A stretch of 64,000 bases of DNA, from NCBI GenBank assembly GCA_934167825.1, contig CAKPLY010000001.1, positions 70,850-134,849 on the forward strand, in the 5' to 3' direction. Each line of letters starts with the position of its first letter. The first letter of the stretch is position 1. Made by a program: the position numbers and the translations under genes. Below, piece after piece: positions 3,910 through 59,763 of this stretch. Source of the stretch: an uncultured Bacilli bacterium. Lineage in GTDB: Bacteria; Bacillota_I; Bacilli_A; RF39; UBA660. The notes under the pieces were generated by a model. That model had not been told where the DNA came from and did no database searches. It saw nothing but the letters and a program-made list of their open reading frames with translations.

Positions 3910-3959
3910 GATAAATAGTGATATGAAAAGATTATTTTGTATTAAGATAATCTTTTTTT
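3910..3959 (+). repeat. copy 1 of a ~50-nt direct repeat, ending in a terminator-like hairpin
   Basis: GATAAATAGTGATATGAAAAG core identical to 4024-4044. AAGATTAT (3928-3935) pairs with ATAATCTT (3947-3954) and is followed by a T-run. Confidence 0.6.
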
Positions 3960-4023
3960 ACTTATATGAGTAGGTAAGAATTGTTTGAGTGAGATAAATT
4001 AGTATATGATTAAATAAACTGAA

Positions 4024-4075
4024 GATAAATAGTGATATGAAAAGGTTATTTTATACTAATTTAGTCTTTTTTTTT
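4024..4075 (+). repeat. copy 2 of the ~50-nt direct repeat (hairpin degenerate)
   Basis: The 21-nt core is identical to 3910-3930. The following ~30 nt are similar and end in T9, but the stem of copy 1 is not conserved. Confidence 0.55.
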
Positions 4076-7412: not shown

Positions 7413-7988
7413 ATGATGAAAAAAGAGATTTTTAAAAGAGAATTAGAGTATATTAGCGATGAAGGTATAAGAGAATCTACTGGTATTATGTTAGATTTAT
7501 TACCAGACTATTTCTATCAAATACCTGCTTCTTCGACAGGAAAGTATCACCCTAGGTTTGCAAGTACTGAATCAGGGTTAGTAAAACATACTAAAGTAGC
7601 GGTTAGAATTGCTAAGGAATTATTAGATAATCCTAGTTTAACTAATTTTACTTTAAGAGAAAAAGATTTAATTATTATGTCTATTATTTTACATGATGGA
7701 CTTAAGAATGGATTAGTAAAGGACAAATATACAAAGATAGATCATCCATTATTAGTATCAAACTACATAAAACAAAATAGTGATAAGTTAAAACTTACTA
7801 AGGAAGATTTAGAAATAGTAACAAAGGGTATATCATCACATATGGGTCCATGGAATAAGGATTATGATGGCAATATAGTACTTCCTACTCCTAAGACTAA
7901 GACAGAAAGATTTATCCATATGTGTGATTATTTATCTAGTAAGAAGTTCTTAGATGTAGAATTTGATAATTTAGATATAAAGTATTAG
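7413..7988 (+). CDS. HD-domain phosphohydrolase
   Basis: KYHP...VKHTK...ILHDGLK...SHMG is a histidine/aspartate pattern typical of HD superfamily proteins. Confidence 0.65.
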   Translation: MMKKEIFKRELEYISDEGIRESTGIMLDLLPDYFYQIPASSTGKYHPRFASTESGLVKHTKVAVRIAKELLDNPSLTNFTLREKDLIIMSIILHDGLKNGLVKDKYTKIDHPLLVSNYIKQNSDKLKLTKEDLEIVTKGISSHMGPWNKDYDGNIVLPTPKTKTERFIHMCDYLSSKKFLDVEFDNLDIKY

Positions 7989-7995
7989 ATTTTGG

Positions 7996-8024
7996 TTGAA
8001 AAAAGATAAATTATATGGTATTAT
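7996..8024 (+). promoter_or_regulatory. sigmaA-type extended -10 promoter of the 8223 surface-protein locus
   Basis: TTGAAA (7996-8001), 17-nt spacer ending in TGG, TATTAT (8019-8024). The architecture and the 14-nt ATATGGTATTATTT are shared with the promoter of the 58079 paralog. Confidence 0.65.
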
Positions 8025-8058
8025 TTATTTAGATAGAGATATGGAAGGAGGCCCCAAC

Positions 8059-8124
8059 ATGAATAGAATAAGTTTAGTTATTTATAACATTTATGCTATC
8101 GGGGGGGGGGCAATTAACATATAG
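8059..8124 (+). promoter_or_regulatory. candidate 21-codon leader mini-ORF containing a G10 tract
   Basis: GGAAGGAGG lies 7 nt upstream of ATG 8059. It encodes MNRISLVIYNIYAIGGGAINI with stop TAG at 8122-8124. An in-frame ATG also exists at 8041. Confidence 0.3.
8101..8110. repeat. homopolymeric G10 tract
   Basis: Ten consecutive G read directly from the sequence, flanked by C on both sides. Highly atypical for this AT-rich window. Confidence 0.95.
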
Positions 8125-8148
8125 AAATAATATAATAAAAGAAGGTAA

Positions 8149-8200
8149 AACTATAGATAAAATGTCTAGAAATAGATAGTTTTTGTCTATAGTTTTTTTG
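8149..8200 (+). terminator. terminator/attenuator hairpin just upstream of the 8223 gene's SD
   Basis: AACTATAGA (8149-8157) pairs with TCTATAGTT (8186-8194). There is an inner TCTA-GAAA-TAGA mini-hairpin, then a T-run to 8199. AAAGGAG and ATG 8223 follow. Confidence 0.55.
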
Positions 8201-8222
8201 TTGTCTAAAGGAGTTAGAAGTT

Positions 8223-10139
8223 ATGGAAAATGTAGAAGTAAATAATAAGAGTAAAATAGTAAAACTAATGATAATAGTAATTATCTTAATAGTAATAGCA
8301 TTAGTAGGAACTTATGCTTTAACTATATGGAGGAGTCAAGAAAACACAGAACTTACTTTACGTATTGGGGATATCTCAGGAATATATTGTGAAACAGGAG
8401 ATCCAGTTAATATAAGTAATCTAGGGCCTATATTTGATTATGAAATAGATGGTGAAGTAATAACTTTTAGTATAGATAATCAAACTAATGAAGTAGTAAA
8501 AACTTCTGCTACATTTAATATTACTACAATAACAGATAATTTAAAAGAAGAAAGTTTTAAATATAAATTACTTTATAGTACAAATAATACTACTTATGAA
8601 TTATTAAAAGAAGGTAATTTTAAAGATGTTACAAATGGTAGTAAAATAGAATTATTAGAAAACTATGATGTTGCTATATCACAAAAAATACATTTTAAAT
8701 TAATAATCTATATAGATGGTAATATGGAAAATCCTATAACTATGCAAGGAGGTAGTTTGGTGGGATATCTTACTGCATGTAAAATTGTTGAAGTAGATAA
8801 AAGTGGTGCTAATGCACCTGCTTTAACAGATGCATTAATCCCTGTAATGTATGATGAAACAACATCTACTTGGGTAAAAGCAGATTCAAGTAATAATGAT
8901 TTATCCTGGTATAATTATGGTGAAAAGAAATGGGCAAATGCAGTGTTAGTATCATCAACAAATCGTAGTACTTACCAGTCCGCAAGTGCAGGTACAACTA
9001 TAACAGATGCAGACATCTTAGCATTTTATGTATGGATACCGAGATATAAATATAAAGTATGGAATATAAACAAAGTAATGGCTACAGATAGTTATAGTGC
9101 ACAAACTACAGGTATAGATATAGTATTTGAAGCAGGTACATCTTCAACTGGTACAATATCTTGTACATATAGTTATGCTGCACCATCAAGTACTGCCGGA
9201 AGTCCCAATGAAACATGTACAGGTAGTAATGGAGATTATTATACACATCCAGCATTTACGTTTGGTAATCAAGAACTAACAGGATTTTGGATGGGAAAAT
9301 TTGAACTATCAAGTAGTAATCCTGCGACTGGTTCATCTTATGGCGGGGGATACTCTACATCTTTAACACCAAGAATACTACCAAATGTAACATCATGGAG
9401 AAATAATATAGTATCAAACTATTGGAAAGTAATATATGATATGCAAACAAGTAATAATATATATGGACTTCCTACATCAAGAACAAATGCTGATTCACAT
9501 ATGCTTACTAATATGGAGTGGGGAGCAGTAGCATATTTAACTAACTCAAAATATGGAAGATGTACAAATGGAAGTTGTACAGAAGTATCAATTAATGGTT
9601 ACGGAGAAACAAGTAATTATACAACTATGACAGGATGTGGTCCAATATCAAGTGGTAGTACAAGTTATAGTACTACATGTAACGCATATAATACAACTTT
9701 AGGACAAACAGCATCTACTACAGGTAATATATATGGAATATATGATATGTCAGGAGGGGCAACTGAATATGTAATGGGTAATATATCAAAAACAAACGGA
9801 ACAACATATACATATTATGCAGGAAATGCAGGAACAAACTTTACATATAGTACAGATACTGCAAAATATCTAATACCTTATGCATATGGAACAACATATA
9901 ATGACCAAACAGCATATAATAGAGGAAGATTAGGAGATGCAACAAGTGAAGTAGTATCTAGAGCAAGTTATGGATGGTATAATGACTACACGTCTTTTCC
10001 TGTCTTTGGCGATTCTTGGTTTCTTCGTGGCGGCAATTTCGGCGCTAGTAGTGAAGGTGAACCCTTCTCTTTCTTCGGCAATTCTGGCATTAATAACCAC
10101 TCTTGTTCGGGGCGTGCTGCTCTTTCTATTGCATCCTAA
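8223..10139 (+). CDS. N-terminally anchored surface protein with an FGE-sulfatase/C-type-lectin-like C-terminal domain and a compositionally aberrant C-terminal patch
   Basis: N-terminal TM helix. Motifs THPAFTF..ELTGFWMGKFELS, NMEWGAVAYL, GIYDMSGGATEYVMGN and FLRGGNF...GRAAL resemble the FGE/SUMF1 fold. It is a paralog of 51428..54073, sharing ILAFYVWIPRYKYKVWN and TSRTNADSHM.TNMEWGAVAYLTNSKYGRC. Confidence 0.8.
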   Translation: MENVEVNNKSKIVKLMIIVIILIVIALVGTYALTIWRSQENTELTLRIGDISGIYCETGDPVNISNLGPIFDYEIDGEVITFSIDNQTNEVVKTSATFNITTITDNLKEESFKYKLLYSTNNTTYELLKEGNFKDVTNGSKIELLENYDVAISQKIHFKLIIYIDGNMENPITMQGGSLVGYLTACKIVEVDKSGANAPALTDALIPVMYDETTSTWVKADSSNNDLSWYNYGEKKWANAVLVSSTNRSTYQSASAGTTITDADILAFYVWIPRYKYKVWNINKVMATDSYSAQTTGIDIVFEAGTSSTGTISCTYSYAAPSSTAGSPNETCTGSNGDYYTHPAFTFGNQELTGFWMGKFELSSSNPATGSSYGGGYSTSLTPRILPNVTSWRNNIVSNYWKVIYDMQTSNNIYGLPTSRTNADSHMLTNMEWGAVAYLTNSKYGRCTNGSCTEVSINGYGETSNYTTMTGCGPISSGSTSYSTTCNAYNTTLGQTASTTGNIYGIYDMSGGATEYVMGNISKTNGTTYTYYAGNAGTNFTYSTDTAKYLIPYAYGTTYNDQTAYNRGRLGDATSEVVSRASYGWYNDYTSFPVFGDSWFLRGGNFGASSEGEPFSFFGNSGINNHSCSGRAALSIAS

Positions 10140-10160
10140 ACACAATAAATAGAAATAAAT

Positions 10161-10222
10161 AGATATGTAAATTACTTTTATGAAATAATTTATTAAAAGT
10201 AATTTACATATCTTTATTTTTT
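10161..10222 (+). terminator. strong rho-independent terminator
   Basis: 20-bp perfect stem AGATATGTAAATTACTTTTA (10161-10180) / TAAAAGTAATTTACATATCT (10194-10213), followed by a T-rich run. Confidence 0.85.
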
Positions 10223-10251
10223 TGATATAATTTAGTTAATGATAGAAAGAT

Positions 10252-10569
10252 ATGGAGGATATGATGAGTGATATTGAATTACTAAGTATAGATATTGGTG
10301 CACTAGAAAGTGCTATAGATAGTCTAAATAGATATATTGGTGAATTAAGTACTGAAGAGGGTAGTTTAGAATATATTAAGAATACTGCTCCTACATTTTG
10401 GAATGAAGGTGCTACTGAAGATATTAATTCATATTGTATAGAACTTGGAAAAAATATAAGTAGTGTTGATGCTCTTATACAGAATTTACAAGGATATATA
10501 AGTACTTTAAGAACACTAATTGCTGAAATTAATGAAGCAAGAAAAAGAAAGTATGCTGGTGAGGTGTAA
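10252..10569 (+). CDS. small alpha-helical protein with a central FWNEG motif (possible WXG100/ESAT-6-like)
   Basis: About 100 aa and predicted all-helical. FWNEGATEDINSY is paralogous to FWNEGVGEDVSSY in the 10907 gene. The true start may be ATG 10261 or 10264, after GGAGGA. Confidence 0.6.
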   Translation: MEDMMSDIELLSIDIGALESAIDSLNRYIGELSTEEGSLEYIKNTAPTFWNEGATEDINSYCIELGKNISSVDALIQNLQGYISTLRTLIAEINEARKRKYAGEV

Positions 10570-10571
10570 TA

Positions 10572-10907
10572 ATGCAAGTAAAAGTTAGATTAAACGATTT
10601 AAGACAAACTAGTAATAGAGCAAATGAATTAAATGTTGAAGTTAAGAGTTTATTTGATAGAACTACAAATAATTTAAAAGAAATTTGTCGTATTGTACAA
10701 TGTAGTGAACTAACTAGTGCAACAAATAGTATTAATGAAGAAATTGAAACTATTAATAATGAAATAAATGAATCTTTAAGAGAAATAAATAATTTCTTGA
10801 TTGAGCAAATTAATTACTATAGTATATCTAATGAAAATGCTACTAGTGCAATAAATAAATTAAGTGAGCAAATTACTAATAGTTTTAGTACGGGAGGTGG
10901 CAATTAA
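10572..10907 (+). CDS. small alpha-helical protein, partner of the WxxG pair
   Basis: GGTGAGGTG SD. 111 aa, Asn/Glu/Ile-rich heptad-like sequence with no Trp motif. Tightly packed between the two paralogs. Confidence 0.55.
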   Translation: MQVKVRLNDLRQTSNRANELNVEVKSLFDRTTNNLKEICRIVQCSELTSATNSINEEIETINNEINESLREINNFLIEQINYYSISNENATSAINKLSEQITNSFSTGGGN

Positions 10908-11365
10908 TGGCAACTTATGGTAGAGAACAATTAATTAAATTAAACCCTGAAAGATTAGAGGAATATACTGCTAATTTAGCAACTTTAGTACAACAATTGT
11001 GTGCAAGAGCAGATGAATTAAAAACTGTAAATAAGACTGCTCAAATGTTTTGGAATGAAGGTGTTGGGGAAGACGTTTCAAGTTATGGAGTATCTTTGGA
11101 TAAAAACATTAATTTAATTAAAGGGAAGTTATCAGATACATTAAATGATTATGTTAAAACAATGAATGTACTTGCTTCAACAGTTAGAAATATTGCTGGT
11201 CAAAATGTTGCTACTGGTGGAACAACAACTTCTTTAGGAGGTACTAAACCTTCTTCTCAAATAGATGAACTTAATAATTTTTATTCATCATTTCGCCAAT
11301 TTGATTCTAATACTACAAATAAATATAGAAATCCTAATGTTTTTGGATCTACTGGAAAAATGTAA
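10907..11365 (+). CDS. small alpha-helical FWNEG-motif protein with a Gly/Thr/Ser-rich C-terminal tail
   Basis: Its start overlaps the previous stop (TAATG) and GGGAGGTGG serves as SD. The helical N-terminal ~95 aa are paralogous to the 10252 gene. Confidence 0.6.
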   Translation: MATYGREQLIKLNPERLEEYTANLATLVQQLCARADELKTVNKTAQMFWNEGVGEDVSSYGVSLDKNINLIKGKLSDTLNDYVKTMNVLASTVRNIAGQNVATGGTTTSLGGTKPSSQIDELNNFYSSFRQFDSNTTNKYRNPNVFGSTGKM

Positions 11366-11375
11366 TGATAATATA

Positions 11376-11410
11376 ACACATAAGTTAAATATTTATGTGT
11401 TTTTTTATTT
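11376..11410 (+). terminator. rho-independent terminator
   Basis: ACACATAA (11376-11383) pairs with TTATGTGT (11393-11400) and is followed by a T-run. Confidence 0.7.
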
Positions 11411-11422
11411 TTTTTAAACTTT

Positions 11423-11472
11423 TTTCATTTTTTTTCGCTAAAATGATTTTCAATATGGAATATATATAATGA
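11423..11472 (+). promoter_or_regulatory. 50-nt conserved promoter-like element, copy A
   Basis: TTTCATTTTTTTTCGCTAAAATGATTTTCAATATGGAATATATATAATGA is 48/50 identical to the reverse complement of 42575-42624. It ends in TATAAT, 46 nt upstream of ATG 11518. Confidence 0.6.
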
Positions 11473-11517
11473 GAGAGTTAATTATATATATTTTTATTTT
11501 GAAAGAAGGAGTGAAAA

Positions 11518-12609
11518 ATGTTTAAAAAAGTATGTAAAGTGATGGTAGTATTTTTGTCTTGTTTATTTATGAATGAGGTTAAGGCAGATGAGTGGACTAC
11601 TAAGGAATTAGAAGGAGATGCTGTTATTAAAGAAATTAGATATAGATATTATTATCTAGTTAAGAATGGAGAATATAAAAGAGTGGATGAAATGGGTAAT
11701 TATTCTTATAGTGATAAGAATGATATTAAATATGGAGAGTTTAGTAGTTGGACAAATAGTCCTATAACAGAGTATGATTATTTAGATATAGAGTATGGTA
11801 AGAAATATGAATATCAAGAGTTATTACCTGCGCAATATATTAAGATAGAGAATGTAACTGATAGTAATATAAGTATTAATGATATAGAAACATATAATTT
11901 AAGTGTAAAGTTAAATCATAAGATATATTCTTGCACTTTATGTAATAGTGATAAGAATATTATATATCCAAATGGTAATATGATTATATATATGCCTATG
12001 AGTGTACTTATTAAGAATCTAACTTTTAATTTTACTAATGATTCAAATAGTAATTTTGAGATTTATTATAGTTTTGATAGAGCGTTTAATAAGATAGTTG
12101 CATCCACTTTAGGAAATAATACGGTATTTTCTTATAAATATAATAAGGCATATAAGCTATATGAAAACTATTCAAATACATTTGTTGGATATAATATTAA
12201 TGTTGATGAATTTATTAAGGTAATATCTGTTAGTGATGTATGTAGAGCAAGAGAAATATATGATTATAAATATAATTTAGATAAGGTGTATTTTGGTACA
12301 ACATATTATAAAGATAAGAGTGATATTGATGTTAGTACTACTGATTTATCTATTGATGATTTATATATGGATGAAAACGATTATCAAATATATTATAAGT
12401 ATTCAAGTGATGTAGGAAGCGGTGATAATAAGAATAATAATGATAATAATACACCAAGTAATATAATACCAATAAATAGTCCTAGTTTAGTTAAGACTGG
12501 TAATTTTAAACTCAAGAATACTAATTATTTAATTACATATATATTGCTATTATTACTGGTTACTTTGCTATTCATAAAGAGAATGAATAAAAAGAGAAAT
12601 TTTAAATAA
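11518..12609 (+). CDS. secreted, probably sortase-anchored cell-wall protein
   Basis: Signal peptide MFKKVCKVMVVFLSCLFMNEVKA. C-terminal PSLVKTG (an LPXTG-like variant) followed by a hydrophobic stretch and a KRMNKKRNFK tail. Confidence 0.7.
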   Translation: MFKKVCKVMVVFLSCLFMNEVKADEWTTKELEGDAVIKEIRYRYYYLVKNGEYKRVDEMGNYSYSDKNDIKYGEFSSWTNSPITEYDYLDIEYGKKYEYQELLPAQYIKIENVTDSNISINDIETYNLSVKLNHKIYSCTLCNSDKNIIYPNGNMIIYMPMSVLIKNLTFNFTNDSNSNFEIYYSFDRAFNKIVASTLGNNTVFSYKYNKAYKLYENYSNTFVGYNINVDEFIKVISVSDVCRAREIYDYKYNLDKVYFGTTYYKDKSDIDVSTTDLSIDDLYMDENDYQIYYKYSSDVGSGDNKNNNDNNTPSNIIPINSPSLVKTGNFKLKNTNYLITYILLLLLVTLLFIKRMNKKRNFK

Positions 12610-18140: not shown

Positions 18141-18268
18141 CTAAAAAAGCGGCGATTCCGGCCAACCTAAACAGGAACCTAAAAAAGCGGCGATTCCGGC
18201 CAACCTAAACAAGGAACCTAAAAAAGCGGCGATTCCGGCCAACCTAAACAGGAACCTAAAAAAGTGAC
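18141..18268 (+). ncRNA. ToxI/antiQ-like type III antitoxin RNA: 3 full tandem repeats (38, 39 and 38 nt) plus a 13-nt partial repeat
   Basis: CTAAAAAAGCGGCGATTCCGGCCAACCTAAACA(A)GGAAC at 18141-18178, 18179-18217 and 18218-18255. A partial CTAAAAAAG begins at 18256. The repeats are head-to-tail with no spacers and sit directly upstream of a ToxN/AbiQ homolog. Confidence 0.8.
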
Positions 18269-51427: not shown

Positions 51428-54073
51428 TTATGAGGCAACTGTGAGTACGGCGCGGGTTGAAAATAAACTTGGAGGGAATTGCTGTCCTTGCATATAGCCG
51501 TTACTGAAATGTGTAAAAAAGATTCCAGCACTTGCTCCATTTCTGATTGCTCCCCCACGATTAAACCAAATTGAACTAACATATACATTATCTCCGTTCC
51601 ATCCGGTTTCAGTAGATAACACTACTTCACTTGTTGCATCTCCTAATCTTGCTCTATTATATGCTGTTTGATCATTAGTTGTTGTTCCATATGCATATGT
51701 TGTTATATATTTTGCAGTATCTGTACTATATGTAAAATTAGATCCTGCAGCTGCAGCGTAATAAGTATATGTTGTGCTTTTCTTGCTTGATGCATTTCCC
51801 ATTGTATGCTCATGAGCACCGCCTGACATATCGTATACTCCCGTAATATTACCTGTAGTAGATGCAAGTGCTCCTTTAGCGCCGTTATATTTATTTGCTG
51901 CAGTTGTGCATGTTGTACTAGAAGAACTATCTGCTTCAGCATCCGCGCCTATTCCTGTTGTAAAGAAACTGCAATTATTTATTGTTACTTCTGTACAGCT
52001 TCCATCTGTACATCTTCCATATTTAGAGTTAGTTAGATATGCTACTGCTCCCCACTCCATATTTGTTATCATATGAGAGTCAGCATTTGTTCTTGATGTT
52101 GATAGTCCATATATATTATTACTTGCTTGCATACCATATATTACTTTCCAAAAGTTAGATGCAGGATTTGCTCTCCAGCTTGTTACATTAGGTATTATTC
52201 TTGGTGTTAGTGATGTACTATTTCCTCCACCACTTGTAGTTGATGGTGAAGAACTTGATAATTCAAACTTACCCATCCAAAAACCTTTTAGTTCTTGGTC
52301 GCCAAAAGTAAATGCTGGGTGTGTATAATATCTTGTGCTAGAAGAGTCTGTACAGTTTTCTGCAAGTTCGTTTGCTAAGTTAATTCCTCCTGCAGAAGTA
52401 TCAACATTAAAGTTATATGTACAACTTATTGTACCAGTTGATGATGTATCATCTTCAAAAACTATATCTATTCCTGCTGTTTTAGCATCATATGTAGAGT
52501 TTCCTATTTGTTTACTCATATTCCATACTTTATATTTAAATCTTGGTATCCATACATAGAATGCTAAGATATCAGCATTTGCTATAGTTGTTCCTGCAGT
52601 AGAACTAGAATAAATTGCTCTTGAATTAGTTGTAGCTTTACCTGAAGCAAAATTATAATAAAGTTTTAGATTATCACATACTATACCACTACCACATACT
52701 GAAGTATTTGTTACACTATAATTACTTGCTACTTCTGCAGCAGTTAAAGCATCATTATATACTATAAATCTTTTTATTGTTCCACCAAAATTACCAGAAC
52801 CAGTTGGTCTTTTACCAATAAATGAAGAAGTAGATGATCCCCAAGTCCAATAGTTTACTGAAGAACTTGCAGATAATTTTTTTCCATTTAAATAGACATC
52901 TAAATCACTAAAACTACGATATACGATATCTACAGTATAAGTTGTATTTATAGATAGTCCACTTCCTCCTACTAAGAAAGTTTTAGGTTGTGCTTCTCCA
53001 TTACCTCCTGCTACAATAAATTCTGTAGCATTGTTATATATACCAAGAGCTGCTTTGGTATGGTAATCTCCAAAAATTACTTGATTTTCTTTTGAAGTTG
53101 TAGTAAATGTTACTGAGTATGTTGCTGGGAATGTTGCTCCAATATTTGAAGGTAGTTCTACATAAGTACTTGCATCATTTGTAATATTTAAACTGCCTGA
53201 AGAAATTGTTGTACCTACTAGTTTTCCAATATTGTTGTTTCCTGATAAGTCATTTGCATATGTAGTACCTTCACTTACTAATACTGCATTTGCCCATTTC
53301 TTTTGGTTATAGTCATACCAACCGTAAGTAGATGTAGAACTTGTAATATCTGCTTTTACCCAGTTAGAACCATTATATACTACTGGTATTAATCCATCTG
53401 TTAAAACTGGATAGTTTGCTCCACTATTATCTATTTTTTCAGTATATCTTGACATAGTATCACTTGCTTCAGCACTTATTAAAGTAGATATAAGTTCTCC
53501 AGATATTGGATTAGAGCCATCTACTGCGCTTGAATCTAACCATATGTATACTTTGTAATATGTTTGATAAGGGTTTAGTTCTATATTTGTAACTAAAGAA
53601 AATACATCATTTATTTGTCTATCTTTAAAGTTACCTTCTGCTAGTAGGGTTTCAGTAGTATTAGTAGCAGTATAAGTAGTTATTGCCCACTTAACTGTTT
53701 CACATTTAGCAATATTAGCATTATTAGTACTAGTACCATCTTTAGTTTGTAAATCTAATATTTTCATAGATAACTGACCATATATAGTTTTAGTTACTGT
53801 TGCTTTTTTCCAAAATTCTATAGTGGTACTTATACCTGAAGTATAATTATCTCCAAGAGTTAATGTTACATTATCTGTAGATAATATTGGATTACCATGA
53901 TTATATATTATTAATCCATCTAATCCTTTACTAATAGTTAAATTAACATTAGTGTTATCATCATTACTATTCCATAAATAAAATGCGTATGATATACTAA
54001 GTGCTAAAAGAATAAATCCTATTACTCCTAAAATAGTACCATATATTTTTCTTTTCTCTAAATTTTTAAACAT
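51428..54073 (-). CDS. N-terminally anchored surface protein: paralog of 8223..10139 with an inserted LamG/concanavalin-like domain and its own aberrant C-terminal patch
   Basis: Shares the N-domain, DNSGANYPVLTDGLIPVVY...KKWANAVLVS, ILAFYVWIPRFKYKVWN, YYTHPAFTFGDQELKGFWMGKFELSSS, NMEWGAVAYLTNSKYGRC, GVYDMSGGAHEHTMGN and NRGG...TRAVL. The ~200-aa insert ends in GGTIKRFIVYNDALTAAEVASNY, a LamG_3-like pattern. Confidence 0.8.
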   Translation of the reverse strand: MFKNLEKRKIYGTILGVIGFILLALSISYAFYLWNSNDDNTNVNLTISKGLDGLIIYNHGNPILSTDNVTLTLGDNYTSGISTTIEFWKKATVTKTIYGQLSMKILDLQTKDGTSTNNANIAKCETVKWAITTYTATNTTETLLAEGNFKDRQINDVFSLVTNIELNPYQTYYKVYIWLDSSAVDGSNPISGELISTLISAEASDTMSRYTEKIDNSGANYPVLTDGLIPVVYNGSNWVKADITSSTSTYGWYDYNQKKWANAVLVSEGTTYANDLSGNNNIGKLVGTTISSGSLNITNDASTYVELPSNIGATFPATYSVTFTTTSKENQVIFGDYHTKAALGIYNNATEFIVAGGNGEAQPKTFLVGGSGLSINTTYTVDIVYRSFSDLDVYLNGKKLSASSSVNYWTWGSSTSSFIGKRPTGSGNFGGTIKRFIVYNDALTAAEVASNYSVTNTSVCGSGIVCDNLKLYYNFASGKATTNSRAIYSSSTAGTTIANADILAFYVWIPRFKYKVWNMSKQIGNSTYDAKTAGIDIVFEDDTSSTGTISCTYNFNVDTSAGGINLANELAENCTDSSSTRYYTHPAFTFGDQELKGFWMGKFELSSSSPSTTSGGGNSTSLTPRIIPNVTSWRANPASNFWKVIYGMQASNNIYGLSTSRTNADSHMITNMEWGAVAYLTNSKYGRCTDGSCTEVTINNCSFFTTGIGADAEADSSSSTTCTTAANKYNGAKGALASTTGNITGVYDMSGGAHEHTMGNASSKKSTTYTYYAAAAGSNFTYSTDTAKYITTYAYGTTTNDQTAYNRARLGDATSEVVLSTETGWNGDNVYVSSIWFNRGGAIRNGASAGIFFTHFSNGYMQGQQFPPSLFSTRAVLTVAS

Positions 54074-54176
54074 AAATAATCACCCTACTTATATCTTAAT
54101 ATCTAAATATTACTTTATCATAAATTGAGAGAAAAGTAAATAATTTTAATACTTCTTTTTAGATTATTTTTTATAT

Positions 54177-54208
54177 AAAAATGCAAGAAATATTTATATT
54201 TCTTGCAT
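54177..54208 (-). terminator. terminator of rnj, with the stop codon in the hairpin loop
   Basis: On the minus strand ATGCAAGAAATA-TAAA-TATTTCTTGCAT is followed by TTTT. Confidence 0.8.
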
Positions 54209-55840
54209 TACTGTAATAATCATTGGTTTATTACCTGTTTCTTTAATTAAATAATTACTTAATTCTTCACGTATTAAATTTTTAATTTTATTATATTCTA
54301 TAAAGTTATTTTTAATATTATTATTTATTATTTTATTAGTTAATTCTTTTAGAGTATCAAGTAATTCTATACTATCTTTCACATAGACAAATCCTCTTGT
54401 TAATATTTCTGGTCCTGCTACTACTTTTTTAGTTTTCTTACTTAATGTAATACTAACTATCATAATACCATTATTAGATAACATTTCTCTATCTTTAATT
54501 ACTAATTCTCCTACATCATCACTACTTTTACCATCTATTGATATAGAACCTGTAGGTACTCTATCAAAACATTCTATTAATTTACCATCTTTAAAGATAG
54601 TTACATCTCCATTTTGTTTTAAAAGTATATTATCTATTGGAATACCTAATTTTTCTCCTAGAGAAGCATTAGCAACCATAAATCTATATTCTCCTCTTGC
54701 AGGATAATAATATTTAGGTTTCATTAAATCTATCATAAGCATTAAGTCTTCACTTGATGCATGATCTGATAAGTTTTTCTTTTTATCTAATGTTACTATA
54801 TTACATCCTACTTTTGCTAATTCATCAAGTAAATGATAATATGTTTTTTCTAAATCTTCATATACTTGTGTTGCTAAAAACACAGTATCATTTTCTCTTA
54901 GTTTAATAAATTTATCATAACCATTAATCATTTTAATAACGTTATAGTAAGGTTTTTCTCTTTCGTTAGAATTTAATATTACTACATTCTTATCATTTAT
55001 ATTAGATAAATCCCCAATAAACTTTCTATCTATTTTTAAATCTCCATTAATTAAGGCATTATCTACGATAGTTTGTAATTTCTTACCCATTACTACTATC
55101 TTCTTATCTGTCTTTGATACTTCATTAAATAATTCTTGTATTCTATATAAATGTGAATTAAGTACATTAAATATTATTCTACCATTACTAGTATTAAGTG
55201 TTTCTCTAATTAAATTATATATTCTATGTCTAGGACTAGTAAATCCTTCTTTTTCAGCATATAAACTTTCTGTTATTAAACAAAGTACTCCTTGTTTACC
55301 TATATATGCTAATTTACCTAAATCTGATCCATAACTACCATCCATTAATGGATCAAATACAAAATCACTTGCATAGAATATTACTCCATCTAATGTATAT
55401 ATTGCATAACCAAAATTACCTGGTATAGAGTGAGATAAACTAACTGGAAATATCTTTATTCTACCAACATTAAATGTTTTATGAGGTTTTACCTCAATTA
55501 AATTATCGGTGTTTAATTTATATGTACTAAATTCTTCTTTAAGTACTTCTAAAGTGAATTTAGAACCATATACTTTAACCCCTTCTAAATCATTAATTAT
55601 ATCTGCTACTGCACCTATATTTTCATCATGAGCATGAGTTAGAAATATTCCTTTTACTCTTTTAATATTATTCTTTAGATAATCTATATTAGGTATAATA
55701 TAATCTATTCCTAATGCTTCTTCACTACCATAATTAAGTCCTGCATCAAATACTAATATATCATCATCTATTTCTATTACATACATATTTTTACCATGTT
55801 CATTTTGTCCACCTAGTGCAAATAATTTTATTTTACTCAT
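54194..55840 (-). CDS. rnj: ribonuclease J
   Basis: KLFALGGQNEHGKNMYV, LTHAHDENIGAV (beta-CASP MBL), 548 aa. Confidence 0.93.
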   Translation of the reverse strand: MSKIKLFALGGQNEHGKNMYVIEIDDDILVFDAGLNYGSEEALGIDYIIPNIDYLKNNIKRVKGIFLTHAHDENIGAVADIINDLEGVKVYGSKFTLEVLKEEFSTYKLNTDNLIEVKPHKTFNVGRIKIFPVSLSHSIPGNFGYAIYTLDGVIFYASDFVFDPLMDGSYGSDLGKLAYIGKQGVLCLITESLYAEKEGFTSPRHRIYNLIRETLNTSNGRIIFNVLNSHLYRIQELFNEVSKTDKKIVVMGKKLQTIVDNALINGDLKIDRKFIGDLSNINDKNVVILNSNEREKPYYNVIKMINGYDKFIKLRENDTVFLATQVYEDLEKTYYHLLDELAKVGCNIVTLDKKKNLSDHASSEDLMLMIDLMKPKYYYPARGEYRFMVANASLGEKLGIPIDNILLKQNGDVTIFKDGKLIECFDRVPTGSISIDGKSSDDVGELVIKDREMLSNNGIMIVSITLSKKTKKVVAGPEILTRGFVYVKDSIELLDTLKELTNKIINNNIKNNFIEYNKIKNLIREELSNYLIKETGNKPMIITVMQEI

Positions 55841-55932
55841 TAAATTTCTCCTTTCTTAAAATTAATAAAAGTATAAAAGACTTTAACATTATATCATATT
55901 TATTATGTTTTGTAAATAAATGCTTTTATAAA

Positions 55933-55961
55933 ATCCCACGAAGGATATTCCTTCATGGGAT
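55933..55961 (-). promoter_or_regulatory. conserved 12-bp stem hairpin just 3' of the 359-aa gene, copy B
   Basis: On the minus strand ATCCCATGAAGG-AATAT-CCTTCGTGGGAT. One pair is G.U on the sense-strand RNA but C.A on the opposite strand. Followed by TTTATAAAA. Confidence 0.6.
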
Positions 55962-55967
55962 ACTCTG

Positions 55968-57038
55968 TTACATAGATACAGTATATGGATCATCAAATGT
56001 ACCTTCTCCTCCAGTTACTAGGACATTAGATTTTAGATAGAAGGTTGGACGGATGGTGTGGCAAAAACGCACGGTGTTGCTACTGACATACCCATCGGTA
56101 TAGACGTTGAAGGCACTATTGGTACTAGATCGTGGTGTTATTGTCCATTCATATCCTTTATATAACCAGTTTTTATTTACGTAATATTGTGATGATGCTG
56201 TAGTTGTTGCGGTATCTGCAAAGTAACTACTAGCATATAGATAATCTGATACGTACATTAATCCAACATTTGCAGTTGTAGTAGAATCATACGCTCCACT
56301 ATTAGCACTCATACAGTTTGTGGTATCTGTACTTAATCCTCTTTCACACAAGTAAAAATTTTGTTTGCTATATCCATTTCCACTGTATCCTTTTAGATAC
56401 CACGTTACTTCTTCGATATAGTTTCTATATGTATCATTTATTCCGTATCCTACAATATCACTGCAAGAAAATGTTTTGTAATCGTTATTGTTAAAGTAAT
56501 ATGTCCAGTTACTACATGCACCATAAGTGGAAGAAGTATTAGTTTTATTATAGAAGTATTCATTTAATATAACATTTGCACTTGCTTTTACTCCAGTTGT
56601 ATTTCCTGTCCAGTCGTTTTTATAACTAGAGTATGTACCTGAAGAGTTTGTAGAGTTATACACTCCCCAAGAACCAGAGTATAATACTCTACTTCTAATT
56701 AGTTTAACTAGATATTCTCCAGTTTTACCATGACTATTAGAATCAAATACTCCAATTATTCTATATAATTCATTATTAAATAGAACATAGTTACTTGGAT
56801 CTGCTCCACGATATCTATAATCGTGGTATTTAGTAGTACTATCAGTGTCAGTATAACTATTAGTTTTACATACTCCTGTTCCTCCAGCATTACATGCTGA
56901 AGATGTTTCTAAACTAATTACTTTATCTGCTAGAGTTGTACTTACTGCATATGTTTGGTTAATAATTTTAGGTATAATGATCGCAAGTATTCCTAATATT
57001 ACAATAGATATAGATATAATAGTAATTTTCTTATTCAT
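55968..57038 (-). CDS. anchored surface protein, short paralog of 58079..59692, with a DUF1566-like hypervariable C-terminal patch
   Basis: N-terminal TM helix. About 300 aa are near-identical to the C-terminal part of the 537-aa paralog, except for 56052-56132. ATG 57038 is preferred over 57047. Confidence 0.75.
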   Translation of the reverse strand: MNKKITIISISIVILGILAIIIPKIINQTYAVSTTLADKVISLETSSACNAGGTGVCKTNSYTDTDSTTKYHDYRYRGADPSNYVLFNNELYRIIGVFDSNSHGKTGEYLVKLIRSRVLYSGSWGVYNSTNSSGTYSSYKNDWTGNTTGVKASANVILNEYFYNKTNTSSTYGACSNWTYYFNNNDYKTFSCSDIVGYGINDTYRNYIEEVTWYLKGYSGNGYSKQNFYLCERGLSTDTTNCMSANSGAYDSTTTANVGLMYVSDYLYASSYFADTATTTASSQYYVNKNWLYKGYEWTITPRSSTNSAFNVYTDGYVSSNTVRFCHTIRPTFYLKSNVLVTGGEGTFDDPYTVSM

Positions 57039-57269
57039 TTTCAACATTCCTTCTTTCTTTAATTAATATATTATCAAGAATATTATTTAACTTATCTTTT
57101 AAATAATATTCTTCATACTTATTATCTTCATATTCTTTTTTTATTACCTCTAAATTATCTAAAATAATATAATTAATATGTAATTTTTTTAGTGTATTTA
57201 TTTTCTTTTTATTCTTAACATTTTACTTACTTCGTCATTATATATTTTTAATATCTTCCCATTTATAGA

Positions 57270-57620
57270 TTATTCACTGGATTTCATCCAGTCCTCAATC
57301 ATTTTTATTATTTCCGCGAGGCGTTTTGAATAATTATGTAATTTTTTTTCTGTTATATATTTTTTAGTGTAAGCACGTTCTAATAGAAAATCTATTATAC
57401 TTAATCTTGCAATTATTTGTGTTTGTACTGCTTTTTTATCTTTTTCATTAGCTGTTAAGGTTGCGGTGTACACAAGTAGCAATACATTTATTTCACATTC
57501 TTTAAAATATTCACGATTGAAAAGGTCCTTTTCCGGTACATTTTCAAATAATTTTTCACTATCTAATATAAATTTCTTTATACAAGATATTATTTTAAAC
57601 TTATCTTCATTGTAATTCAT
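57270..57620 (-). CDS. four-helix-bundle protein (23S rRNA IVS protein / DGR Avd-like family)
   Basis: 116 aa. NVPEKDLFNREYFKECEINVLLLVYTA....KK...Q.IIARLSIIDFLLERAYTKKYITEKKLHNYSKRLAEIIKMIEDWMKS follows the Avd/TIGR02436-type pattern I remember (..P..EK..L...i......ll.....A ... l..L ... kyIs...y..l...l.EI.KMi.gW). Confidence 0.6.
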   Translation of the reverse strand: MNYNEDKFKIISCIKKFILDSEKLFENVPEKDLFNREYFKECEINVLLLVYTATLTANEKDKKAVQTQIIARLSIIDFLLERAYTKKYITEKKLHNYSKRLAEIIKMIEDWMKSSE

Positions 57621-58010
57621 CTTCTATTACCTCAATTAATTTTTCTAAGATAGAAATATCTTCTGCTTTATTTATTTAATTTTCTATTCTATCTACTCTT
57701 TGTTTTATATCTTTATATTCAAGTGCTTGTTTTAACACTTTGTTATAGTTATTAAAATTACCATATTTTTTATGATCATAATGATCATTTTTATCTACTA
57801 TTTGATAATTAATTTTTTATCTTCAAGTGTATTTATTACTTTGCTTAGTGCAGTTTTACGGAAATCCTACTTTGTTATCTATTAGTGTTTTATAACCAAA
57901 TAGGTAATTTAATATTATTGCACTATCGTTATATGTATTATAAAATTTGCCAATTTTATATAATGTTATTGTTGCATCTATTTCTTTGTTTCTTGTTTTA
58001 GTTTTGACAT
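57607..58010 (-). pseudogene. frameshifted small gene with a MutS-domain-I-like N-terminus
   Basis: Pieces in three frames read MSKLKQETKK / IDATITLYKIGKFYNTYNDSAIILNYLFGYKTLIDNKVGFP / KTALSKVINTLEDKKLIIK / QIVDKNDHYDHKKYGNFNNYNKVLKQALEYKDIKQRVDRIEN / INKAEDISILEKLIEVIEDELQ. LYKIGKFY..Y.DSA...VGFP..AL...I..L aligns by eye with MutS LFYRMGDFYELFYDDA...AGIP.HA...YL.KL. Only one 73-aa piece (57856..58077) appears in the ORF track. Confidence 0.4.
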
Positions 58011-58032
58011 TGTTGTGGCGTTCCTTTCGATT

Positions 58033-58062
58033 GTCCCACGGAGGCTCGTTCCTCCATGGGAC
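58033..58062 (-). promoter_or_regulatory. conserved 12-bp stem hairpin just 3' of the 537-aa gene, copy A
   Basis: On the minus strand GTCCCATGGAGG-AACGAG-CCTCCGTGGGAC. It differs from copy B by a compensatory G-C to A-T pair change and has the same G.U position. No T-run follows. Confidence 0.6.
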
Positions 58063-58078
58063 TTGTTTAATAAACATT

Positions 58079-59692
58079 TTATACTGCTAGTATGTATGGG
58101 TCACTTATAGTTCCGCTTCCTTTCTCAATACTGATTATAGATTTTAGATAGAAGGTTGGACGGACAACGTAGCCATAGTACGCGAAATTAGGGTAGACAT
58201 TCCCAGTGTATTGAATGCAGATGACGTGATTGGCGCCAGTAGAGTGTGGTGTTATTGTCCATTCATATCCTTTATATAACCAGTTTTTATTTCCGTAATA
58301 TAGTGATGATGCTGTAGTTGTTGCGGTATCTGCAAAATAACTACTAGCATATAGATAATCTGATACATACATTAATCCAATATTTGCAGTTGTAGTAGAA
58401 TCATATGTTCCATTATTGGCACTCATACAGCTTGTGGTGTCTGTACTTAATCCTCTTTCACACAAGTAAAAATTTTGTTTACTATACTCATTACTTCTAT
58501 ATCCTTTTAGATACCATGCTACTTCTTCAATATAATTTCTATAAGTATCATTTATTCCATATCCTACTATATCACTGCAAGAAAATGTTTTGTAATCGTT
58601 ATTATTAAAGTAATATGTCCAGTTACTACATGCCCCATAAGTGGAAGAAGTGTTAATTTTATTATAGAAGTATTCATTTAATATAACGTTTGCACTCGCT
58701 TTTACTCCTGTAGTATTTCCTGTCCAATCGTTTGAATATCCAGAGTATGTACCTGAAGAGTTTGTGGTATTATACGCTCCCCAAGCACCTGCATACAATG
58801 GATTTGCCATGATCAGTTTGATTAAGTATTCTCCTTCTCTACCATGAGAGTTAGAATCAAATACTCCTATTATTCTATATAGATCATTATTAAATGATAC
58901 GTAATTATTTGGTTCCGCTCCACGATATCTATAGTCGTGATATTTAGTTTCTCCGTTTTCAGTGTAGGAGTTTGTTGCACATACTCCTGTACCTCCAGCA
59001 GCACACGCTGAAGTGGAAGCAAGATTCATTATGGTTTTAGATGCTGTAAGAGGTCTTACAAGGGCTTTTTTACTTTTAGTAGATAATTCTATTTTGATAT
59101 TACCACTTATTGTTTTACCCATTAAACTAGAGATATCTTGGTCTATAGTACAAGTAGTTACATCTCCAGTACATTCTTCACTTATCCAAATAAATAATGT
59201 ATAAGAGTCTGCAGTACTAGAGTTAGATGGTAAATCTTGTTGTATTGGAGTAAGTACCATTCTCTTATTGATTTGAGCATCAAAATCATAAGAGAAGTTA
59301 CCACTTGACAATTCAGTATTATTTTTATATAATCTCCATTTTAATAATTTATGATGTGCTAAAGTATCCATAGTTAAATCAGTTAAACTAACATCATAAA
59401 TTATAGGTATATCGGTAGGATTAGAACTAGCACCTTTAACAGTAAAGTTTGCTTTTAATACTTTACTATTTGTAGCACTAGAAGTAATAGTAGTATCTAC
59501 TACGGGTTCTAGTTTACTTGATGGAAGTGTTACACTTCCAGTATAAACTACATTATAATTACCACTACCAATATTAATACCTATATCAGTTCCTGTTGCT
59601 AAAGTATATCCTACATATAAAAGTATTATAAAAGCAAGAATTAGAGCAAATACTTTAATATTATTTTTAATAAATTTATTTATATTTTCCAT
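58079..59692 (-). CDS. anchored surface protein with an N-domain shared with the FGE-like family and a DUF1566-like hypervariable C-terminal patch
   Basis: N-terminal TM helix. The N-domain (LKWRLYKNNTELSSGNF...YTLFIWISE) resembles those of 8223 and 51428. The C-terminal ~300 aa are paralogous to 55968..57038. Divergent patch at 58163-58246. Confidence 0.75.
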   Translation of the reverse strand: MENINKFIKNNIKVFALILAFIILLYVGYTLATGTDIGINIGSGNYNVVYTGSVTLPSSKLEPVVDTTITSSATNSKVLKANFTVKGASSNPTDIPIIYDVSLTDLTMDTLAHHKLLKWRLYKNNTELSSGNFSYDFDAQINKRMVLTPIQQDLPSNSSTADSYTLFIWISEECTGDVTTCTIDQDISSLMGKTISGNIKIELSTKSKKALVRPLTASKTIMNLASTSACAAGGTGVCATNSYTENGETKYHDYRYRGAEPNNYVSFNNDLYRIIGVFDSNSHGREGEYLIKLIMANPLYAGAWGAYNTTNSSGTYSGYSNDWTGNTTGVKASANVILNEYFYNKINTSSTYGACSNWTYYFNNNDYKTFSCSDIVGYGINDTYRNYIEEVAWYLKGYRSNEYSKQNFYLCERGLSTDTTSCMSANNGTYDSTTTANIGLMYVSDYLYASSYFADTATTTASSLYYGNKNWLYKGYEWTITPHSTGANHVICIQYTGNVYPNFAYYGYVVRPTFYLKSIISIEKGSGTISDPYILAV

Positions 59693-59734: not shown

Positions 59735-59763
59735 ATAATACCATATTTTTTATATTATTTCAA
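59735..59763 (-). promoter_or_regulatory. sigmaA-type extended -10 promoter of the 58079 gene
   Basis: On the minus strand TTGAAA (59763-59758), 17-nt spacer ending in TGG, TATTAT (59740-59735). Homologous to the promoter at 7996-8024. Confidence 0.6.

Follow-up and report, generated by a model that had tools for sequence, protein, structure and literature searches.

The pil1 and pil3 pilus operons of Streptococcus gallolyticus carry GCAGA repeats (13–23 units) in a leader-peptide gene placed ahead of a stem-loop terminator (Danne et al. 2014, PLoS Pathog, PMC3894217). Short leaders stop at least 28–39 nucleotides (nt) ahead of the terminator and keep expression low. A frameshift yields long leaders, whose stop falls inside the terminator or past it, and expression is then high because ribosomes destabilise the stem-loop, an antitermination confirmed with mutants of the start codon and of the stop codon and with a deletion of the terminator (PMC3894217). 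No other attenuator with a simple sequence repeat (SSR) in a leader peptide was found in the literature searched. Here we describe a candidate analogue, a tract of ten guanines (G10) within a short leader open reading frame (ORF) upstream of a gene for a protein of 638 amino acids (aa). It lies in a 64,000-nt stretch of DNA from an uncultured Bacilli bacterium (assembly GCA_934167825.1, contig CAKPLY010000001.1, positions 70,850–134,849), hereafter the window, whose numbering is used throughout.

Like pil1 and pil3, the element comprises a promoter, a leader ORF with its own Shine–Dalgarno sequence (SD) and a non-triplet repeat, a stem-loop and a probable surface gene, and it occurs at more than one locus per genome. 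We are highly confident that it is a selected, length-variable G-tract leader module. By comparison of related sequences and by analogy, we assign a probability of roughly two in three to the more specific reading as a phase-variable leader-peptide attenuator, in which the long frame would be ON through ribosome-mediated antitermination. The original prediction, made from the letters of the window, had proposed such an attenuator, which gained support from length polymorphism, a frame rule, a conserved architecture and the proven pil1/pil3 analogue. The coupling between leader peptide and terminator, which it had offered as a hypothesis of its own, is likewise supported by the comparison but is not new, having been published in 2014 (PMC3894217).

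Anatomy of the leader

All leader features lie on the plus strand. A sigma-70-type promoter, TTGAAA-17-TATTAT with an extended −10 TG, was read directly at 7996–8024, with the −35 hexamer TTGAAA at 7996–8001, a 17-nt spacer and the sequence TGgTATTAT, whose −10 hexamer occupies 8019–8024. This promoter had been described as good; the sequence is there and its −10 block is conserved, but the match is not above chance, as scanning the AT-rich window returned 22 promoter-like sites against 29 expected. Support comes instead from conservation across copies, the extended −10 block TGnTATyATTTA being kept upstream of other leader copies and on the minus strand of the window at 59763–59714. The SD of the mini-ORF (GGAAGGAGG, 8043–8051), read directly and conserved in the alignment of copies, precedes an ATG start codon at 8059–8061. 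In the G10 state of the window, translation gives a mini-ORF at 8059–8124, comprising 21 codons (MNRISLVIYNIYAIGGGAINI) and a TAG stop at 8122–8124, which is predicted to be the OFF (short) frame.

The homopolymeric tract itself, the mutable element, consists of exactly ten G at 8101–8110. It is the only G/C run of at least eight in the 64-kilobase (kb) window, where G8 or longer is expected 0.07 times, and in 373 kb of related DNA of 27% GC all G/C runs of this length (18/18) also lie in leader copies, which excludes a chance origin. Frames were recomputed for other tract lengths. With G9 or G12, the reading frame continues across 8111–8179 (QLTYRNNIIKEGKTIDKMSRNR*) to a TAG at 8177–8179, inside the terminator-like hairpin described below, to give an ORF of 39 or 40 aa. 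With G11 or G8, it ends at a TAA at 8115–8117. The short stops thus fall 22 nt (G10) or 29 nt (G11) upstream of the hairpin base. These results reproduce the frame arithmetic of the original prediction (one G fewer or two more for the long frame, one more for the TAA), and the SD, start codon, ten-G run and stop codon that it had reported were all recovered by direct reading. In assemblies with G9, a 39-aa gene is annotated at this place and corresponds to protein cluster P0135.

The 638-aa gene begins at 8223, behind an SD (AAAGGAG) read directly at 8207–8213. The promoter scan of the window yielded no promoter-like site between 8024 and 8223, and the 20–27 nt that separate hairpin and ATG leave no room for one. 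Rfam gave no match for the whole window at gathering thresholds, nor for 7950–8260 at E values up to 1.

Tract length at one locus

Tract-length variation was observed between assemblies of the same locus. The window (G10) aligns with no mismatch over 2800 nt to loci L002 and L056 (ERZ28614700) and over 3121 nt to L055 (ERZ27287232), from two independent samples and all three with G9, and the sole gap in each alignment is the tract. The change in length on which the predicted switch depends was therefore found, by comparison with related genomes, as G10 versus G9 at one locus with nothing else different. Similarly, L040 (G9) and L048 (G10) are identical over 247 nt. At the peptide level, clusters P0141 and P0161 (G9 versus G12) differ by an extra glycine only, and P0155 and P0184 (also G9 versus G12) by glycine plus one C-terminal residue.

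The leader family

A homologue of the 638-aa protein (~60% identity) from another species-level metagenome-assembled genome (MAG), locus L013, has the same upstream layout: SD and ATG, G10 tract, nearly identical hairpin, SD and gene. Scanning a gut metagenome collection with a hairpin pattern returned 20 more matches, two of them cut by contig ends, which fall into two subtypes, A (window-like) and B (L013-like). The 17 distinct intact copies carry G10 (ten copies), G9 (six) or G8 followed by C (one). Three copies are tract-less: L038, in which the tract is replaced and the long frame kept, and L042 and L054, which are decayed. In all intact copies, an SD-led ATG lies 20–27 nt beyond the hairpin pattern. 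The downstream genes differ, with at least five different N-termini that all open with a hydrophobic anchor, and one of the proteins contains PARCEL/DUF285 repeats. A profile of the long-form peptides matched at least 93 clusters of 38–49 aa in a protein collection, of which 64 contain GGG (equivalent to G9) and 11 GGGG (equivalent to G12), the rest having an interrupted or replaced tract. Overall, the tract lengths encountered were 8, 9, 10 and 12. In the remaining species-representative loci, L012 and L014–L035, an nhmmer search with the leader alignment turned up no diverged copies. The related contigs derive from human-gut metagenome assemblies and from MAGs labelled "uncultured Bacilli bacterium". 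Taken together, the copies suggest that the leader element is a portable module of ~170 nt placed before many genes for signal-anchored, probably surface, proteins in uncultured gut Bacilli of 26–27% GC.

Seven copies (L040, L041, L045, L046, L049, L052 and L057) have an extra 50–90 nt between the promoter and the SD of the mini-ORF. In this insert the conserved motif gatccyAAATAATTCGyaa occurs once or twice. The window copy lacks the insert, which might serve as an operator or as an additional RNA element.

Frame rule and conservation of the open frame

Each of the 17 distinct intact copies has a single length class that produces an ORF of 39–43 aa, with its stop at the same position of the hairpin (...SRNR*); the stops of the other two classes precede the hairpin motif by 43–61 nt and the hairpin base by 22 nt or more. 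By their actual tract lengths, seven copies are in the long and ten in the short state. Shuffling leaves the frame that follows the tract (22–25 codons) open in only 5–8% of cases per copy, whereas all copies of both subtypes have it open. Variable sites are spread over the codon positions (5/5/5 for subtype A, 6/4/10 for subtype B) and the majority change the amino acid, so that the open frame is kept but not the peptide. In copy L050a, a deletion of 1 nt before the tract shifts the conserved pre-tract bases into a different frame, and there G10 leads into the long frame.

The strongest argument so far for equating the long frame with ON comes from copies that have lost the tract. Those before an intact gene keep the long frame, namely L038, ahead of a NUDIX gene, and L057 and L060–62, ahead of a 537-aa family that elsewhere is preceded by a G9 or G10 leader; such tract-less forms occur on 19 and 10 contigs. 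The ORF-less copies L042 and L054 have no SD-led gene adjoining the hairpin. Moreover, opposite states occur on one contig (L050a long with L050b short, and L045 long with L036 short), as expected for independent switches.

The terminator-like hairpin

The second of two predicted hairpins (hairpin 2, 8147–8199, plus strand) resembles an intrinsic terminator, with a 22-base-pair (bp) AU-rich stem, a GAAA loop and a U-run to 8199, and a folding energy of −20.3 kcal/mol. Bases 8147–8168 pair with 8173–8178 and 8181–8196 (z = −7.5 versus shuffles). A hairpin with a T-run ahead of the SD of the gene had been reported here and is present, although its stem is of 22 bp rather than of 9 bp with a large loop. 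The same style of hairpin is found downstream of the 638-aa gene (10161–10213, within a terminator region at 10161–10225, plus strand; −22.2 kcal/mol by folding), as the original terminator of an operon with an HD-domain gene (HD operon), which served as a comparator. Hairpin 2 is kept in all copies, with broken pairs only in the decayed L042 and L054, and is followed across copies by a conserved run of 6–8 U. One-sided substitutions within it in intact copies are all G·U-compatible on the sense strand.

A helix between the tract and the spacer of the mini-ORF

The first hairpin (hairpin 1, 8051–8111, plus strand) was found in minimum-free-energy (MFE) folds, in which the C-rich spacer 8052–8055, together with G8051, is paired to C8111 and the 3′ part of the G tract. 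Its inner stem joins the start codon and the first codons to conserved pre-tract bases. The spacer between SD and AUG is C/U-rich (window, GGCCCC; subtype B, GUGCCUCUCUU), and nearly every copy has it paired with the G tract in the MFE fold. In subtype A, AUGAAUAGAAUAAAU pairs with AUUUAUGCUAUC in the inner stem, which accounts for the nucleotide-level conservation of the first codons and of the "IYAI" codons, while the variable middle of the peptide corresponds to the loop. The tract-less copies L038 and L060 have AAGAGGGA in place of the tract; this is the Watson–Crick complement of UCCCUCUU in L038 and pairs with UCUCUCUU in L060. A replacement that remains complementary to the spacer constitutes compensatory-type support for hairpin 1. 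By analogy with the trp 1:2 pause hairpin, hairpin 1 could pause RNA polymerase until a ribosome loads, or it could gate initiation on the mini-ORF.

In subtype B (e.g. L041 and L046), the conserved post-tract sequence AAACCCUUAUAAAAUAAGAGAUU can fold back on itself (CUUAU/AUAAG) or pair with both the G tract (through CCC) and the spacer (AUAAGAG/CUCUUAU). These alternative folds recall classical attenuators and are absent from subtype A.

Proposed mechanism and its alternatives

In the proposed attenuator, transcription from the promoter at 7996–8024, and perhaps also from the upstream HD operon, would meet the intrinsic terminator at 8147–8199 before reaching the 638-aa gene. Slipped-strand mispairing during replication would alter the length of the G tract in the SD-led mini-ORF. 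With G9 or G12, the ribosome would cross the 5′ arm of the terminator and stop at UAG 8177–8179, so that the hairpin would be blocked, with read-through and the gene ON. With G10, as in the window, G11 or G8, it would stop at 8122 or 8115, at least 22 nt before the hairpin, and termination would leave the gene OFF or low. Loci of one contig in different states would then generate combinatorial surface variation. Four elements of this scheme are our inference: hairpin 2 ends transcription, a ribosome passing through keeps it from doing so, the long frame corresponds to ON, and switching takes place within populations.

Several points weigh against the attenuator. Termination at 8199 and read-through are predictions, and no both-sided compensatory change was found in hairpin 2 (0/19 pairs). 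The conservation of this hairpin is partly by construction, as the retrieval pattern fixed part of it. Homopolymer length in the consensus of short-read metagenome assemblies can be off by one base. The short states are all exactly one G above the long one and never one below (10/10 distinct copies), which simple symmetric slippage does not predict; a mutational bias, selection for one OFF state or low-level +1 slippage are possible reasons. Furthermore, the conserved helix over the start of the mini-ORF could mean a more complex logic. Finally, antitermination needs a ribosome that keeps pace with the polymerase, and transcription–translation coupling is weak in at least some Firmicutes, such as Bacillus subtilis. 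Tentatively, hairpin 1 may be part of the answer: the element is possibly a self-contained module of ~200 nt (promoter, hairpin 1, ORF with G tract and terminator), spread before dozens of different secreted-protein genes of an abundant lineage of uncultured Bacilli in the human gut, where it would yield combinatorial surface variation. In this module the tract would act both as frame switch and as helix strand, and the helix may pause the polymerase or gate the first ribosome, which would enable antitermination in a loosely coupled Firmicute.

Among the alternatives, one retains the tract as a true switch in a translated leader and places the output after transcription, with ribosome transit through hairpin 2 altering the stability or processing of the mRNA or translation initiation at the downstream gene. 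The comparative evidence for frame-dependent ribosome transit fits this explanation equally well, and SSR-dependent control through structure in the 5′-untranslated region (UTR) and RNase III has been described in Haemophilus influenzae (PMC12721329). We nevertheless consider it unlikely, if worth keeping in mind, given the conserved U-run and the resemblance of hairpin 2 to the organism's own terminator; moreover, the SD of the 638-aa gene is free, not sequestered, in the predicted folds.

It is improbable that the mini-ORF instead encodes a functional protein of ~39–43 aa, itself phase-variable, with the hairpin as its terminator and an independent downstream gene. Such a small protein would agree with the long form having been called as a gene in at least 93 clusters, and with a fairly constant ...NPYKIRDY...LSRNR segment in subtype B. 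The subtype A peptide, however, varies freely, with equal change at all codon positions, and the conserved ends are explained by RNA pairing, since they correspond to the codons of hairpin 1 and, at the C-terminus, to the 5′ arm of the terminator. L050a, which reads the conserved pre-tract bases in another frame, also argues against this reading, as do the lack of separate promoters for the downstream genes and the constant position of the intact element directly before an SD-led gene.

We give slightly less credence still to a non-heritable mechanism, in which polymerase slippage or +1 ribosomal frameshifting on a fixed G10 would allow some translation of the long frame and the tract would act as a rheostat. 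Such a rheostat would suit the ten of ten distinct short states that lie one G above the long state, as a +1 slip on GGG_G restores the long frame. Against it stand the differences in length at the DNA level between otherwise identical loci, the occurrence of lengths 8, 9, 10 and 12, and the general knowledge that transcription slips less readily on runs of G:C than on runs of A/T. Rheostat slippage and heritable switching could coexist.

Lastly, a tract without function, be it an assembly or sequencing artefact or a neutral remnant, with a hairpin that only ends the upstream operon, is hardly credible. Homopolymers are error-prone, and hairpin 2 would also end the transcripts of the HD operon, which in the window strain lacks a terminator ahead of the cassette. 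The tract, however, recurs in two diverged subtypes and in independent assemblies of several projects, no other kind of long G/C run occurs in the 373 kb, and the frame rule holds in 17/17 distinct intact copies. The doubt raised in the original prediction, that the tract might be an assembly artefact, is for the same recurrence very unlikely to be justified.

The 638-aa gene and its genomic context

The gene under predicted leader control (8223–10139, plus strand) encodes an N-terminal hydrophobic anchor, a variable N-terminal β-sandwich and a conserved C-terminal domain of ~430 aa. The 638-aa protein had no match in Pfam or NCBIfam, a sequence search of the PDB returned noise only, and exact-protein look-ups of this product and of P0001 found nothing on record. 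An AlphaFold2 model computed with 30 homologues had a mean predicted local distance difference test (pLDDT) score of 47 and was confident only in the β-sandwich, at approximately residues 56–190. FGE-sulfatase-like motifs spotted by eye in the C-terminal domain found no support in any model match, and neither did a possible SipW-type signal peptide, for which the signal model gave no match. Some members of the family carry dockerin, Laminin_G_3 or glycine-rich domains. The description of the product as a hypervariable surface protein is plausible in view of its N-terminal anchor and of the large, diverse family with dockerin and PARCEL members. The closest full-length homologue, P0003 (84% identity), is found in another context and without the leader, which is thus not universal to the family.

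Promoter, leader and 638-aa gene form a cassette (7994–10158, plus strand) located between the stop codon of the HD-domain gene and the HD terminator. The cassette is absent in L001 and L003–L009, i.e. in eight of ten contigs with an identical HD protein among the matches listed, where the HD stop codon is directly followed by the terminator and then the next gene; in L002, it is present with a G9 tract. Judging from these contigs, the cassette is a presence/absence (insertion/deletion) polymorphism between strains. Neither flanking direct repeats nor a recombinase gene were seen at the junctions.

The window is chromosomal and belongs to a Firmicute of 26% GC, with ftsA, ftsZ, an MscS channel, the HD-domain protein, a sporulation-type sigma factor, spoVA genes and enolase (eno). 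A phage or other mobile origin was rejected: in a blastn comparison with phages, only the HD gene matched, and weakly, to Clostridium phage c-st. Repeats of the 638-aa gene occur in the window only as a paralogue on the minus strand, at 51.4–54.1 kb, whose product (51428–54073) shares 59% identity with the C-terminal domain of the 638-aa product. It is part of a minus-strand paralogue cluster (51428–59692; 881, 548, 359 and 537 aa) headed by a signal-anchored 537-aa gene at 58079–59692. The promoter block at 59763–59714 (TTGAAA...TATGGTATTATTT), the same as that of the leader, lies directly before this gene, with no mini-ORF, tract or hairpin behind it.

Immediately after the cassette, positions 10252–12609 contain three small genes for coiled-coil-like proteins of 105, 111 and 152 aa, two of which share an FWNEG motif. 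Next comes a gene whose 363-aa product has a signal peptide and, at the C-terminus, LVKTG plus a hydrophobic tail reminiscent of a sortase signal; none of the four proteins had a convincing Pfam match. Elsewhere in the window, three tandem GC-rich units (CTAAAAAAGCGGCGATTCCGGCCAACCTAAACAGGAAC) with a spacing of 38–39 nt were found in a very AT-rich intergenic region at 18141–18264. Two direct copies of a 50-nt element, 88% identical and 114 nt apart, lie upstream of ftsA at 3910–4073, and the element ends in a hairpin-like segment and a T-run.

Comparison with known systems

In the trp and pyrBI leaders of Escherichia coli, formation of the terminator depends on translation of the leader peptide across its 5′ arm or beside it, and in pyrBI a ribosome that follows closely physically blocks the hairpin. 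The window element shares with them the proposed leader translation over the terminator 5′ arm. Their input is metabolic (charged tRNA or UTP), whereas that of the window element would be a heritable mutation, and antiterminator pairing of the trp type is not needed.

In the 5′-UTR of tlpB of Helicobacter pylori, a variable G-repeat pairs with the trans-acting small RNA RepG, and the length of the repeat tunes translation. In the window, by contrast, the C/U-rich partner lies in cis, in the spacer before the AUG of the mini-ORF, and the main read-out would be the reading frame. Mycoplasma gene families of the vlp/vsp type have a poly-A tract in a conserved 5′ region, which alters promoter spacing and involves neither leader ORF nor terminator. 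They resemble the proposed leader switches in that many surface-protein genes each have a conserved 5′ homopolymer module, which permits independent ON/OFF states, and one downstream protein of the leader family contains Mycoplasma-type PARCEL/DUF285 repeats.

The tracts of Campylobacter jejuni, Neisseria and Haemophilus are mostly found within structural genes or promoter spacers, and a frameshift within a gene truncates the protein itself. In the window, the structural gene is untouched and a frameshift would act via leader ORF and terminator. Shared with the poly-G/C contingency loci of C. jejuni are tracts of ~8–11 G/C in an AT-rich genome, multiple independent loci, a probable association with the surface and the clustering of lengths at 9–10. 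The poly-G tracts of C. jejuni have a modal length of 9, with G8 biased to insertion and G11 to deletion (Bayliss et al. 2012, PMC3401435).

If the attenuator reading is true, leader SSR attenuation arose independently with a homopolymer, as a modular, multi-copy switch in common uncultured commensals of the human gut (Hadza and other cohorts). Tract length modulo 3 would then predict the ON/OFF state of each locus from metagenomes, and surface-antigen variation could be tracked without culture. Annotation pipelines, which now miss the 21-aa form or label the 39-aa form as hypothetical protein, would benefit as well.

The closest parallel is with pil1 and pil3, in that the short frame stops well before the hairpin and the long frame within it, in 17/17 distinct intact copies. 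The repeat of the window element is a G homopolymer rather than the pentanucleotide GCAGA and, with no GCAGA repeats and no sequence relatedness, the two systems are analogous, not homologous. In the pil1/pil3 model, out-of-frame gain or loss of repeats leads to long leaders, whereas in the window element one of the three length classes is long. Unlike pil1 and pil3, moreover, the window element is a portable module of ~170 nt, with two subtypes, many unrelated genes and an extra helix between tract and spacer. Whereas pil1 and pil3 were proven by experiment, the window element is a predicted attenuator, in an uncultured gut Bacilli lineage. The mechanism as such is already known from pil1 and pil3; what is new is the homopolymer, the modular spread over multiple genes and the second conserved helix.

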